Positions 39,664 through 41,677 of a DNA stretch of 64,000 nt are shown in pieces; position 1 is the stretch's first letter; every line of letters starts with the position of its first letter. The notes beneath the pieces are model-generated. The model searched no databases. It had not been told where the DNA came from and saw only the letters and a program-made list of their open reading frames with translations. The position numbers were made by a program, and so were the translations under genes. Origin of the DNA: an uncultured Candidatus Saccharibacteria bacterium (GTDB taxonomy: Bacteria > Patescibacteriota > Minisyncoccia > 1-14-0-10-42-19). Location of the stretch: the NCBI GenBank assembly GCA_964362625.1, contig CAYIFA010000001.1, positions 2,994-66,993 of the forward strand, in the 5' to 3' direction.

Positions 39664-40713
39664 TCAAAATGGACCTTTAAAGCGGTGCTCGTAATTATAA
39701 AACTGCTCTCCGGACAAATCAGCTGCTTCTAGGCCAAGTTTCTTCTCAATTACGCGAATGATGTTAATGGCGGTTGGGTAGAAAGCGTCTTCGAGCGGCC
39801 GGGTAGTCGGACAAGGCGTATGCGCAAACCCGATTCGGCTAACCGGCGACTTCAAATGACCAAAGCATTTTTCAGAAACAACAGCCGCAACTTCCGCGCC
39901 AAATCCAAAAGGGACCCAGTCATAATCGGCAACAACACAATGGCCGGTTTTCATAACCGATGTCGTGATAGTTTCTTCATCTAGCGGAGCGATTGTCCGC
40001 GGGTCAACTATTTCAACGCTGACATTGCGCTTGGCTAACACCCGTGCGGCTTCACGCGCTTCCACATTCATCCACGATGTAGCGACAACTGTAACGTCGG
40101 AGCCTTCGCAGAGAATCTTAGCTTGGCTTAACGATTCAACATATGGTTCCTCCGGTACTTCGCCTTCCTGCCAATAAAGCCAACGATGCTCAAAAAACAA
40201 AACCGGATTATCGTCGCGGATGGCAGAAATCAATAATCCTTTGGCGTCATATGAGGTGGTCGGCATTACTACTTTCAATCCGGGTATATGCGCAAAAACA
40301 GAGTGCATCGTCTTGGAGTGCTGGAAGCCCTGCCCCCAACCGCGACCGATCATCGACCGGATGACTATTGGAACTTTTAATCTTCCGCCGGATCCATACC
40401 GAAGGCTCGAAACCATATTGGCGAGCTGATTCATGGCCAGCAGAAGAAAATCCGCTCGGATGTGGACATTAATCGGACGAAAACCATTTATGGCAGCGCC
40501 CAAACCAAAACCAAGCAAACTATCTTCGGCGAGCGGGGTAGAGAAACACCGGTTTACGCCGAAACGTTCACTCAATCCCAAAGTGCTTCCGTAAGTACCC
40601 TTATGATCATCAACATCTATGCCGTAAACGAAGATTTTCGGATCTCGTTCCATTTCCTGGATATGCGCTTCACGGATCGCCTCACAAAATGTTATGACAC
40701 GCTGGTTAGTCAC
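39664..40713 (-). CDS. TPP-dependent 2-oxoacid dehydrogenase E1 beta subunit-like (transketolase C-terminal/pyrimidine-binding)
   Basis: A 349-aa protein of E1-beta/transketolase-C architecture. It overlaps the alpha-like gene by 8 nt. Confidence 0.8.
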   Translation of the reverse strand: MTNQRVITFCEAIREAHIQEMERDPKIFVYGIDVDDHKGTYGSTLGLSERFGVNRCFSTPLAEDSLLGFGLGAAINGFRPINVHIRADFLLLAMNQLANMVSSLRYGSGGRLKVPIVIRSMIGRGWGQGFQHSKTMHSVFAHIPGLKVVMPTTSYDAKGLLISAIRDDNPVLFFEHRWLYWQEGEVPEEPYVESLSQAKILCEGSDVTVVATSWMNVEAREAARVLAKRNVSVEIVDPRTIAPLDEETITTSVMKTGHCVVADYDWVPFGFGAEVAAVVSEKCFGHLKSPVSRIGFAHTPCPTTRPLEDAFYPTAINIIRVIEKKLGLEAADLSGEQFYNYEHRFKGPF

Positions 40714-41677
40714 AAAGCACCCCTTTTCTTAATTCAGAGGCATCCGGATAGTTGGCAGATTTGGCAGCTTCTATGCTGTTCCGGATTTGTTCATCAATCT
40801 CTTCTTTAAGATCCAGCAATTCTCCTTCTGTAATTCCATACGCGAGCAATTTAACAAACTGTAAATAAAGCGGATCTCGTTCTAACCACTTTCCAAATTC
40901 ATGTCTGGTCCGGTATCCGGCCCGAAAATCTTCGCCTATGCCAACATGTTCAAGATAACGATAGTAACGTAAATGCATAAAGTAGGGCCTTTCGGTTTGA
41001 CGCATAAAGCGCAATGCACCCAGAGCCGCCAAATAAATCGTTTCGGCATCAGTTGTTTCGGAAGAAAAAATTCCGCATTGAAAACGAGACACGATATCGG
41101 TAATTGAATTGTAACCGTGGCGTTTTGCCGCCGGGATATGAACGGCTAATCCGTTATCCTCGCATACAAACAAAACCGGCAATTTCATGAGAGTAGCGAT
41201 ATTTAACGATTCCCAGAAATTTCCCTCGTCAATCGCGCCATCGCCGAAAAATACCGCGGAAACATTGCCATTGCCCTCCTGTTTTTTGGCAAAAGCCGCA
41301 CCAACCGCCACTGGAATTGTGCTCGCCACTACTGCCGAAACTACCATTAAGCCATGATTTGGCGCCGAAAGATGCATAGAGCCAGCTTTACCTTGGGCCA
41401 TACCGGTAACTTTCCCGTACATTTCGGCAAAAAACTTGTCGGTTTCCATGGTTTTAGCCAGATATAAAGCATGACTGCGATAAGTTCCGAACACCTGATC
41501 GCCGGGCCTTAACGCCTGGCACACACCGGCTGAAATCGCTTCCGATCCCATCGACATATGCATTGGCGTTTTCATTTCATCCTCGGGATAATGCTTAATG
41601 ATTGCCTCCTCGGCTTTACGAATAAGATAAATTCTTCGATAAAGCTCAAGACTAGTCTTCCGGTCAACTAACATCAT
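40706..41677 (-). CDS. TPP-dependent 2-oxoacid dehydrogenase E1 alpha subunit-like
   Basis: A [15 protein letters not shown] TPP-binding motif is present. Length is 323 aa. Confidence 0.8.
   Translation of the reverse strand: [323 protein letters not shown]

Follow-up and report, generated by a model that had tools for sequence, protein, structure and literature searches.

The window, a 64,000-nucleotide stretch of DNA from a groundwater Patescibacteria MAG, carries an E1 alpha/beta gene pair whose products, on our analysis, probably form an E2-independent ThDP carboligase of an NDP-heptose pathway, which would add a pyruvate-derived acetyl branch at C4 of a sugar destined for a surface glycan. 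Genomic context points to the carboligase role, and pyruvate as the donor, C4 as the acceptor, the order of the reactions, the carrier nucleotide and the structure of the product are also inferred from it. Domain architecture, cofactor motifs, the absence of nearby E2/E3 genes, conserved linkage and a separate phylogenetic position were observed directly. All ThDP-enzyme ORFs of the window lie on the minus strand and have exactly the coordinates given in an earlier, sequence-only reading of this DNA, which had also described the pair as overlapping genes with a GDG...N motif. The two genes are:

40706..41677, minus strand: E1 alpha-like ThDP-binding subunit, 323 aa (Pfam E1_dh, E 8e-47)
39664..40713, minus strand: E1 beta-like subunit, 349 aa (Pfam Transket_pyr, 6e-31, and Transketolase_C, 6e-33)

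Their overlap is 8 nt, and the database copy of E1 alpha is 322 aa long and begins at the second Met. The two-subunit layout, in which E1 alpha binds ThDP and E1 beta provides the PYR and C-terminal domains, is present with intact cofactor motifs: the GDG-X27-N ThDP motif occupies residues 145-175 of E1 alpha, and E1 beta keeps the cofactor-activating Glu63 (TPLAE) and His132 (QHS). His244 of E1 alpha aligns with His263 of human PDHA1, with a Val at the position of phospho-Ser264. Architecture and catalytic residues of the pair are thus preserved.

Among named entries the pair matches models and structures of PDH E1 alpha/beta best, with E1 beta fairly near the PDH E1 beta 1ik6 (233 bits), and public databases label the family only 'TPP-dependent dehydrogenase E1 component'. 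The pair shares fold, ThDP motif, activating Glu and His with the PDH and acetoin E1s (human PDHA1/PDHB, Acinetobacter aco). Since the active-site His residues with which PDH E1 performs lipoyl transfer are retained, an E2 partner encoded elsewhere stays compatible with the sequence alone. The pair could then belong as E1 to a conventional complex (pyruvate, acetoin or branched-chain 2-oxoacid dehydrogenase) with E2 and E3 elsewhere and an accidental position in a sugar locus, a reading that we consider extremely unlikely. E1 alpha is only around 24-32% identical to canonical PDH/acetoin E1 alpha, lacks their phospho-Ser and scores 238.7 bits against the NCBIfam model TIGR03182, below its cut-off of 393.85. 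E1 beta is likewise below the cut-offs of both NF006667 (295.6 bits versus 321) and NF008854 (270.9 versus 454).

We searched for the partners that a conventional complex would need. Pfam scans detected no 2-oxoacid_dh, lipoyl or Pyr_redox domain in the 57 listed window ORFs of at least 150 aa. Because a regex motif search for E2/E3 has limited sensitivity (it missed the E2 of Leisingera and returned antisense false matches), we added tblastn with the E2, E3 and LipA of a real aco operon, which gave no match in the window at E<=1e-3. By motif search and tblastn, E2, E3, LipA and lipoate genes were absent from the window and around 170 related loci (2.3 Mb), whereas in the Acinetobacter aco operon, detected as a positive control, E2, E3 and lipA adjoin the E1. 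This bears out the earlier statement that the window holds no E2 or E3 partner and extends it to the related loci. To our knowledge, Patescibacteria generally lack 2-oxoacid dehydrogenase complexes.

The phylogeny separates the pair from conventional complexes as well. In a neighbor-joining tree of E1 alpha (100 bootstraps), the family forms a clade with 100% support, apart from the E1s with E2/E3 partners; these canonical references (n = 4) group together with 79% support. At 85% support the family instead joins E2-less E1s encoded on Azospirillum LPS plasmids and in a sugar locus of S. magneticus. Members of the clade are 50-76% identical and come from MAGs of Patescibacteria, Dehalococcoidia, Omnitrophota, Planctomycetota, Desulfobacterales, Nanoarchaeota and others. 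More distant homologs occur in the cultured bacteria Azospirillum lipoferum 4B and Solidesulfovibrio magneticus RS-1. A search of plasmids returned relatives at 35-45% identity, all of them E2-less. One is the pair on S. griseofuscus pSGRIFU1 (36-40% identity), which lies in a PKS/NRPS-type rather than a sugar context, so identity in this range does not discriminate function.

To define the neighborhood of the family, we collected 70 genome loci with an E1 alpha at least 45% identical to that of the window. E1 beta is present in 60 of them and the heptose-type dehydratase in 56; GHMP kinase (36), RmlC (34), SDR reductases (35-41), DegT (17) and adh_short (24) are also recurrent. The order of the genes is conserved: E1 alpha is directly followed by E1 beta in 56 out of 59 related loci and directly preceded by the heptose-type 4,6-dehydratase in 34 out of 61, the latter mostly with an overlap of 4-8 nt. 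Other neighbors in sister loci include an HddC-type nucleotidyltransferase (21 loci), an aldo-keto reductase (17 loci), GmhA and ABC-2 exporters, together with aminotransferase and methyltransferases. This linkage to heptose genes is maintained across more than 10 phyla, including MAGs of Patescibacteria and Nanoarchaeota, which again argues against an accidental position. We rejected a housekeeping PDH or acetoin E1 on the combination of curated scores, absence of E2/E3/LipA in 2.3 Mb, tree and conserved sugar linkage. The non-PDH role favored by the sequence-only reading agrees with these results, and its suggestion of a two-carbon addition to a sugar, drawn from the AviB1/AviB2 analogy, gains support from the strong and conserved association of the pair with an NDP-sugar 4,6-dehydratase gene, the chemistry itself being read from context.

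The following features surround the pair in the window:

44886..45878, minus strand: GHMP kinase of the heptose-7-phosphate kinase type, HddA-like (top PDB matches 4usm, 3k85, 4n3o)
43823..44803, minus strand: NDP-heptose 4,6-dehydratase, which is predicted to form the 4-keto acceptor (closest structure 7us5)
41867..43822, minus strand: interruption between dehydratase and E1 alpha (GC 0.39)
39636..39657, minus strand: terminator-like hairpin directly 3' of the E1 beta stop codon (consensus scan only; weak)
38612..39562, minus strand: class I SAM-dependent methyltransferase, not covered by a Pfam family model (homologs of around 310 aa carry this name)
36377..38440, minus strand: B12-binding radical SAM enzyme, KedN5-like C-methyltransferase (B12-binding and Radical_SAM domains)
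35409..36377, minus strand: extended SDR, similar to GDP-fucose synthase and GDP-mannose epimerase (generic similarity)
34674..35327, minus strand: RmlC-fold NDP-4-keto-sugar 3,5-epimerase (Pfam dTDP_sugar_isom, E 6e-37)
33707..34681, minus strand: extended SDR reductase, GDP-fucose-synthase-like (orthologs with 49-61% identity in 35 out of 70 loci)
31945..33587, minus strand: 254-aa protein and GT2 glycosyltransferase, the last genes of the string

The dehydratase matches 7us5, the GDP-D-glycero-D-manno-heptose 4,6-dehydratase of C. jejuni, with 281 bits (E 1e-82) as compared to around 137 bits for GDP-mannose dehydratases, and carries the GITGFVG, SSSEVYG and YAVSK motifs. Together with the match of the kinase to heptose-phosphate kinases, this makes a 4-keto-6-deoxy-heptose nucleotide, and not a hexose, the likely acceptor. 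HddA is the top NCBIfam model of the kinase, with 145 bits, below the cut-off. The epimerase is equally near RmlC and the GDP-4-keto-heptose 3,5-epimerases 8db5 and 7m14, and PDB searches with both SDRs returned only generic similarity to GDP-fucose synthases and epimerases. Downstream of E1 beta, the methyltransferase ORF extends to 39667 (351 aa), with Met36 as the likely start. Its AF2 model (pLDDT 95.9) has a methyltransferase fold with generic Foldseek matches only; the family occurs in 26 out of 70 loci and is fused to a transketolase C-half in three of them. The B12-radical-SAM enzyme scores 234 bits against the KedN5 family NF033712, below the cut-off of 700, and its orthologs (43-50% identity) adjoin E1 alpha/beta in five sister loci.

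In the proposed pathway, a heptose phosphate would be activated with the participation of the HddA-like kinase, and the dehydratase would convert the product to an NDP-6-deoxy-4-keto-heptose, whose C3 and C5 may be reset by the RmlC-like epimerase. The E1 alpha2beta2 enzyme would decarboxylate pyruvate to hydroxyethylidene-ThDP and, because no lipoyl-E2 is there to accept it, the carbanion would attack the C4 carbonyl, yielding a 4-C-acetyl tertiary alcohol and hence a branched nine-carbon sugar. The SAM methyltransferase, the B12-radical-SAM methyltransferase and the SDR reductases could tailor the branch, and the GT2 would transfer the finished sugar. A 4-keto sugar is also what the RmlC-type epimerase and the Fcl-type reductases require, so the same dehydratase could supply an ordinary branch toward a 6-deoxyheptose while the E1 pair acts elsewhere.

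For heptose activation, no isomerase, phosphatase or nucleotidyltransferase is obvious in the window, although related loci have them. In particular, tblastn with SIS and NTP_transferase representatives gave no window match for GmhA or HddC, both present in sister loci, and a GmhB homolog was likewise not seen in the window. Possible substitutes for these heptose enzymes are a PMI-like cupin and, at 63166..63684, an RfaE-domain-II-like transferase. As to a replacement of GmhA by the cupin, SIS and cupin are nearly exclusive of each other among kinase-containing loci, in a pattern that is confounded by the type of E1.

The window also departs from the compact arrangement of many sister loci. 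The interruption between dehydratase and E1 alpha contains a 131-aa orphan ORF (41867..42262), an NTPase_I-T/DUF84 gene (42614..43150), a low-GC spacer and a repeated dehydratase 3' end. The latter is part of a direct repeat (42465-42592 and 43792-43919, 94% identity) that comprises the last 93 nt or so of the dehydratase gene and its terminator hairpin. A weak promoter-like site lies 5' of E1 alpha (41738..41765) in a consensus-only scan, whose promoter and terminator counts are only around 2 sd above those of shuffled sequences. Given the 2-kb interruption and the flanking terminator-like hairpins, co-transcription of the dehydratase with the E1 pair is not assured in the window.

In the literature, C2 branches that stem from pyruvate are added to NDP-keto sugars by E1 alpha/beta homologs, as demonstrated in vitro for KbDH, and then undergo modification by a transaminase or by the aldo-keto reductase Pau7 (PMC4753412, PMC4802897, PMC12247030). 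Like the window pair, AviB1/AviB2, AlmDI/DII, Pau11/12 and KbDH-alpha/beta are two-gene E1 alpha plus beta systems without E2/E3. They too lie in nucleotide-sugar clusters with a 4,6-dehydratase, a likeness of architecture and context to which the sister loci add an AKR, SDR, aminotransferase or methyltransferase potentially able to modify an acetyl branch. The window has no aldo-keto reductase or DegT beside E1, unlike the loci where the analogy is strongest; its candidate branch modifiers are only the SDRs, the SAM methyltransferase and the B12-radical-SAM enzyme. The systems differ also in acceptor, which is a dTDP-deoxyhexose for the AviB1/B2 type and, by prediction, a heptose nucleotide for the window pair, and in setting, namely actinomycete antibiotic clusters as opposed to surface-glycan loci with GTs and ABC-2 exporters in other phyla.

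Other known systems resemble the window in part. YerE and ErwE, which branch CDP-4-keto-3,6-dideoxyglucose in the formation of LPS sugars such as yersiniose and erwiniose, share with the pair the proposed reaction type, in which a ThDP-bound acyl anion adds to a nucleotide keto-sugar, as well as the cell-surface polysaccharide setting. However, they are ALS-like ThDP flavoenzymes with TPP_enzyme_N/M/C in a single chain, whereas the window pair distributes E1_dh and Transket_pyr/C over two chains. The GDP-6-deoxy-heptose pathways of Campylobacter jejuni, Yersinia and Burkholderia (HddA, DmhA, MlghB/DdahB, MlghC/DdahC) have homologs of their kinase, 4,6-dehydratase, RmlC-fold epimerase and Fcl-like reductase in the window operon; they contain no ThDP enzyme, and no homolog of their GmhA, GmhB or HddC was seen in the window. 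Finally, the split-gene transketolases of miharamycin and amipurimycin, proposed to perform hydroxyacetyl branching and known as candidates only from Streptomyces, have counterparts in 14 sister loci, as the next genes behind E1 beta, and in a heptose operon of Geomonas edaphica. The 648-aa transketolase-like protein of the window belongs to a different, unsplit family.

These split transketolases bear on a second reading, in which the E1 pair is a ThDP carboligase of the same sugar pathway with a chemistry other than the C4 acetyl branch. The enzyme might use another 2-oxo acid as donor, act on a C3 keto group after 3,4-ketoisomerization, extend the chain at an aldehyde, or cooperate in building a longer branch with enzymes of many sister loci, namely the split transketolase or those of the YerE type. 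Besides the 14 loci with a split transketolase, a YerE/ALS-type ThDP enzyme, absent from the window, accompanies the E1 pair in five sister loci, and the family of the window methyltransferase located 3' of E1 beta is elsewhere fused to the C-half of the transketolase. The Geomonas edaphica operon combines heptose genes with a split TK, AKR, MT and RmlC and has no E1, which suggests that TK and E1 can replace or complement each other as C2 donors. Moreover, YerE-like enzymes use longer, aldolase-made keto acids (PMC9306805), and E1-type enzymes are known to branch at C3 in aldgamycin and kibdelomycin. However, pyruvate is the sole donor that characterized E1-type branching enzymes accept, and the branches they form are C2 (PMC12247030). 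Translational coupling with the 4,6-dehydratase indicates that the electrophile is the C4 ketone, and no 3,4-ketoisomerase is recognizable beside the E1 pair. We consider a different chemistry unlikely, although clearly more plausible than a conventional complex.

A further possibility is that the pair is a decarboxylase or acyl supplier, for example of an aldehyde or acyl group that ends up O- or N-linked to an amino sugar, itself a product of the neighboring aminotransferases. DegT aminotransferases directly follow E1 beta in several loci (L004, Azospirillum and S. magneticus), and in S. griseofuscus the related E2-less pair has a condensation domain and an ACP as neighbors. To become an acyl donor, however, hydroxyethyl-ThDP requires an oxidant or carrier such as a lipoyl, ACP or CoA system, and none is conserved in the loci. 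The pairing of E1 with an aminotransferase is already explained by transamination of an acetyl branch, as in kibdelomycin. We regard this role as very unlikely and prefer C4 acetyl branching by the E1 pair.

The window encodes two further ThDP enzymes, which the sequence-only reading had grouped with the pair as one sugar-building set:

53911..55800, minus strand: divergent E1-type ThDP enzyme with fused alpha' and beta' parts, hereafter E1' (629 aa; E1_dh, Transket_pyr and Transketolase_C)
52480..53235, minus strand: PMI-like cupin (Cupin_2)
51973..52479, minus strand: DJ-1/PfpI protein (TIGR01382, 163.5 bits, above the cut-off of 139)
14364..16310, minus strand: transketolase-like protein in a NeuB/CMP-sugar operon (648 aa; all three transketolase domains)

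E1' is indeed a fused homolog with the three domains in one polypeptide, though a divergent one (31% identity to E1 alpha and 24% to E1 beta). Its family comprises 80 metagenome loci (45-71% identity), mostly with the enzyme split into two genes. It forms a separate clade with 100% bootstrap in the NJ tree and has an Asp where the activating Glu stands in canonical enzymes. The DJ-1/PfpI and cupin genes co-occur with E1' in 23 out of 24 loci of at least 12 kb. As for the protein described as a full transketolase, its length and three domains hold, while its identity as a canonical pentose-phosphate enzyme does not, either by score or by context. The family is widespread in CPR under the name 'transketolase'. 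The window protein scores below the cut-offs of both NF004559 (366 bits versus 488) and TIGR00232 (131 versus 682), and the neighborhood of adh_short, TK, CTP_transf_3 and NeuB is kept in all three loci examined. On these scores and on its place in NeuB/CMP-sugar operons in three out of three loci, we rejected a CPR pentose-phosphate transketolase. The three ThDP genes thus belong to sugar modules as proposed, yet to three separate conserved ones and not to one system.

In the literature on heptoses, ThDP, transketolase and branched sugars we found no description of the gene module that contains the E1 pair. E1-type sugar branching is currently seen as a trait of actinomycete antibiotics, and C-branched sugars of the cell envelope are credited to YerE-like enzymes (PMC12247030). 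If our reading is true, a very common and highly conserved E1 alpha/beta family would instead C-branch heptoses in surface glycans. A systematic mis-annotation would also be corrected, which matters because these E1 genes can pass for evidence of PDH in metabolic reconstructions of MAGs. The distant homologs in cultured Azospirillum lipoferum 4B, Solidesulfovibrio magneticus RS-1 and, in the transketolase variant, Geomonas edaphica make the idea testable. The family would in addition be a source of ketone-accepting ThDP carboligases, which are sought for chiral tertiary alcohols, and new sugar structures would be predicted. Among the hosts of the family are the ultra-small Patescibacteria and Nanoarchaeota, with envelopes that mediate an episymbiotic lifestyle. 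Tentatively, we propose that the module may give rise to chemically undescribed C-branched sugars of at least nine carbons that are widespread on the surfaces of Patescibacteria, DPANN archaea and many other uncultured phyla, and that in this genome it may work alongside two further undescribed ThDP sugar modules, one with the Asp-bearing E1', DJ-1/PfpI and cupin, the other with the NeuB/CMP-sugar transketolase.

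The window has a GC content of ~45% and carries nearly all of its genes on the minus strand. All ORFs named in the sequence-only reading were found with exactly the same coordinates, including the pair of E1 subunit genes that is the focus of this analysis and two further thiamine diphosphate (ThDP) enzyme genes:

40706..41677, minus strand: E1 alpha, 323 aa, Pfam E1_dh (E 8e-47)
39664..40713: E1 beta, 349 aa, Pfam Transket_pyr and Transketolase_C
53911..55800: second, fused E1, 629 aa, with E1_dh, Transket_pyr and Transketolase_C in a single chain
14364..16310: transketolase-like gene, 648 aa, with three of three transketolase domains detected

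The genes of the E1 pair overlap by 8 nt. The ThDP/Mg motif of E1 alpha spans 31 residues (145-175), and its His244 aligned with His263 of human PDHA1, with a valine at the adjacent position of the regulatory phospho-serine. In E1 beta, the glutamate that activates the cofactor (TPLAE) and the histidine of the active site (QHS) are both kept. Both the fused E1, which shares 31% identity with E1 alpha and 24% with E1 beta, and the transketolase-like gene are real. Since coordinates, domains and motifs were all found, the initial observation is confirmed. Near-identical partial proteins carry the label 'Patescibacteria group bacterium', and an identical E1 gene pair is carried by a Hainich groundwater 0.1-um contig.

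The E1 pair had been described as devoid of E2 and E3 partners. None of the 57 listed window ORFs of at least 150 aa has a Pfam match to a 2-oxoacid dehydrogenase acyltransferase domain, a lipoyl domain or a pyridine-nucleotide disulfide oxidoreductase domain, and six-frame searching for E2/E3 motifs across the window plus 86 loci was negative. Because this motif search proved only moderately sensitive, we ran tblastn with the E2, E3 and LipA of a genuine Acinetobacter acetoin operon and the E2 of a Leisingera pdh locus against the 2.3 Mb composed of the window and all loci fetched from other genomes. The sole match was the locus of a Sphingobium 'acetoin:DCPIP oxidoreductase'; the window and all sugar-type loci gave none. 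Pfam (window) and tblastn (window and sugar-type loci) bear out the absence of E2/E3 near the E1 pair.

The NCBIfam scores of both subunits fall below the curated cut-offs (238.7 versus 393.85 for E1 alpha, 295.6 versus 321 for E1 beta). The best solved relative of E1 alpha, human PDHA1, scores just 116 bits, and E1 beta is closer to its own (1ik6, 233 bits). We placed 30 E1 alpha-type sequences in a neighbour-joining tree (319 columns, 100 bootstraps), with four canonical references and none of the characterised sugar-branching proteins among them. The window E1 alpha lies inside a clade with 100% support, joined at 85% by other E2-less E1 alphas from Azospirillum LPS plasmids, Solidesulfovibrio magneticus pDMC1 and a Streptomyces griseofuscus plasmid. 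E1s with E2/E3 partners, represented by the four canonical references, form the opposite group (79% support). Together, the sub-cut-off scores and the separate tree position argue that the E1 pair is a non-canonical E1. The S. griseofuscus pair (pSGRIFU1 137096-139142), which is 36-40% identical to the window pair, adjoins a condensation-domain protein, ACPs and ketosynthases with no sugar-gene setting, and is a further non-PDH use of the E1 fold.

The protein database contains thousands of E1 alpha homologs, of which the top 120 share 60-76% identity with it. Scanning species-representative genomes yielded 80 loci, carried by MAGs of Dehalococcoidia, Saccharibacteria and other Patescibacteria, Omnitrophota, Pirellulales/Phycisphaerae, Desulfobacterales, Magnetococcales, Gammaproteobacteria, Elusimicrobia, Bacteroidota, Acidobacteriota and one Nanoarchaeota archaeon. 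The within-family E1 tree is at odds with organismal phylogeny, which fits a horizontal spread of the family. Closed genomes such as OZ252106.1 and CP070806.1 carry the family too. Neighbouring genes were labelled by their BLASTP matches to proteins of the window.

Table. Neighbours in the 70 loci with E1 alpha of at least 45% identity.
E1 beta: 60/70
Ortholog of the window 4,6-dehydratase (59-72% identity): 56/70
SDR, first type: 41/70
GHMP kinase: 36/70
SDR, second type: 35/70
RmlC-like epimerase: 34/70
Ortholog of the window 351-aa 'unknown': 26/70
Split transketolase: 25/70
adh_short reductase: 24/70
DegT aminotransferase: 17/70

With duplicate loci removed, 34 of 61 have the dehydratase gene immediately upstream of E1 alpha, usually overlapping it by 4-8 nt, and 56 of 59 have E1 beta directly downstream of E1 alpha. 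Clustering of the unlabelled neighbours identified an HddC-type nucleotidyltransferase (21 loci), a methyltransferase-like protein (18), an aldo-keto reductase (17) and GmhA (7), along with ABC-2 exporter pairs and glycosyltransferases. A YerE/ALS-type ThDP enzyme (TPP_enzyme_N/M/C) is present in five E1 alpha/beta loci, L080 among them, together with the split transketolase, so that up to three ThDP classes share one cluster. In several Chloroflexota MAGs (L005/L011, L014, L045; genes of 639-647 aa) the class I methyltransferase of 38612..39562, which has no Pfam model and comes after E1 beta in the window, forms a single chain with the C-terminal half of a split transketolase; this Rosetta-stone fusion ties it to the ThDP step. 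The cultured Geomonas edaphica (L087, SSYB01000004.1) has a heptose operon without E1 alpha/beta, composed of an SDR, an HddC-like gene, GHMP kinase, split transketolase N and C, a second SDR, an aldo-keto reductase, the same methyltransferase family and RmlC, as if the transketolase stood in for E1 as C2 donor.

The sugar substrate is likely a heptose, judging from the dehydratase and the kinase. The dehydratase (43823..44803) retains the Rossmann, SSSEVYG and YxxxK motifs and matches the C. jejuni GDP-D-glycero-D-manno-heptose 4,6-dehydratase 7us5 (E 1e-82, 281 bits), with GDP-mannose dehydratases far more distant (~137 bits). The kinase (44886..45878) is nearest to heptose-phosphate kinases in PDB and to HddA in NCBIfam, and the epimerase is similar to RmlC and to GDP-4-keto-heptose epimerases alike. 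No GmhA, GmhB or HddC is recognisable within the window, where an RfaE-domain-II-like transferase (63166..63684) could act as sugar activator.

E1 alpha/beta homologs such as AviB1/B2, AlmDI/DII, Pau11/12 (= Plm8/9) and KbDH, which couples pyruvate to ketones in vitro, extend nucleotide deoxysugars at the keto group by a two-carbon branch derived from pyruvate; further enzymes then reduce (the aldo-keto reductase Pau7), transaminate or methylate the acetyl branch (PMC4753412, PMC4802897, PMC12247030). These actinomycete enzymes are the nearest by function, and YerE-type LPS branching enzymes the nearest by setting. The loci described here follow the actinomycete logic but are heptose-centred, running from dehydratase to E1 alpha/beta and on to aldo-keto reductase, SDR, DegT or methyltransferase. 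Since they repeat a known branching logic, we propose a C4-acetyl branch mechanism, in which donor, acceptor carbon, step order and nucleotide are all inferred. Pyruvate would form hydroxyethylidene-ThDP on the E1 pair, which would attack C4 of an NDP-6-deoxy-4-keto-heptose to give a 4-C-acetyl branched sugar. This product would be tailored by the class I SAM methyltransferase 38612..39562 (AF2 model pLDDT 95.9, with only generic fold matches), a KedN5-like B12-radical-SAM methyltransferase and two SDRs, and then transferred by GT2. RmlC-type epimerase and Fcl-type reductases also take 4-keto sugars, and therefore some flux may go to ordinary 6-deoxyheptose. The lack of E2/E3, the separate clade and the dehydratase linkage favour the idea, already advanced from the sequence, that the pair would transfer a C2 unit to a sugar.

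In the window, ~2 kb separate the dehydratase from E1 alpha and hold a 131-aa orphan ORF, an NTPase_I-T/DUF84 gene and a low-GC spacer. The 3'-terminal ~93 nt of the dehydratase gene, together with its terminator hairpin, are present twice (128 nt, 94% identity, ungapped), at 42440-42600 and 43770-43920, flanking a low-GC (0.39) insert (42614..43790) with the NTPase_I-T/DUF84 gene. An ancestral junction between dehydratase and E1 alpha seems to have been split here by an insertion. By consensus matches alone, promoter-like sites lie 5' of E1 alpha and a terminator-like hairpin 3' of E1 beta.

The fused E1 belongs to a family apart from that of the E1 pair (45-71% identity, 80 metagenome loci), mostly encoded by two genes, alpha' and beta'. 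A DJ-1/PfpI protein and a PMI-like cupin lie beside it in 23 of 24 loci of at least 12 kb (51973..53235 in the window), a combination that to our knowledge occurs in no known pathway; HAD phosphatase, GHMP kinase, DegT, B12-rSAM and PhyH genes are frequent companions. Among kinase-containing loci, SIS-type GmhA and the PMI-like cupin are nearly mutually exclusive. The ThDP-activating glutamate is universally conserved, and an aspartate there is unusual for a ThDP enzyme. In a MAFFT alignment, all five second-E1 members compared (the window, L109, L137, L138 and L146) have Asp in this column (LSMAD/LSMDD) and Ala in the active-site His column. Both E1 systems occur in a single gene string in the window and in a Yanofskybacteria MAG (L079).

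The transketolase-like family (54-75% identity) is common in Patescibacteria. In three of three neighbourhoods examined, as in the window, the gene has an adh_short reductase on one side and CMP-sugar-type cytidylyltransferase/NeuB genes on the other. This conserved setting suggests that the protein also is sugar-dedicated, in a pathway that is different from that of the E1 pair. Rather than forming one system, the three ThDP genes belong to separate conserved modules. The window version (12024..17345; compare L172, L173 and L174) has NeuB fused to a cupin, and other such neighbourhoods contain an aldehyde dehydrogenase and a KDPG-type aldolase. The gene set suggests an undescribed ulosonic-acid pathway using transketolase.

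Elsewhere in the window, at 55895..57626, a fusion of a cytidylyltransferase-like with an APS-kinase domain adjoins a sulfotransferase, which suggests that PAPS is supplied locally and a glycan sulfated; in L003, a related locus, the same sulfotransferase is directly upstream of E1 alpha. A NusB domain is fused to a NUDIX hydrolase domain at 1743..2633. A 307-aa UDP-glucose/GDP-mannose dehydrogenase-like ORF (3961..4884) has neither a C-terminal domain nor the first part of the N-terminal one and is possibly truncated.

A 2025 review places YerE-like enzymes in LPS and E1-type and split-transketolase enzymes in secondary metabolites, the latter 'all from Streptomycetes'. Our literature searches turned up no account of an E1 or transketolase module, either in heptose pathways or in these phyla. 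Related modules exist in cultured bacteria, namely Azospirillum lipoferum 4B (plasmid AZO_p6), S. magneticus RS-1 (pDMC1) and, for the split-transketolase variant, Geomonas edaphica, which makes the idea testable. Glycan biosynthesis occupies ~55 of the 64 kb (21654..64000 and 3961..18633), with three NeuB homologs, about ten extended SDRs, two B12-binding radical SAM enzymes, a HemN-like radical SAM, a PhyH dioxygenase and an asparagine-synthase-like gene, a very large outlay for a small genome.
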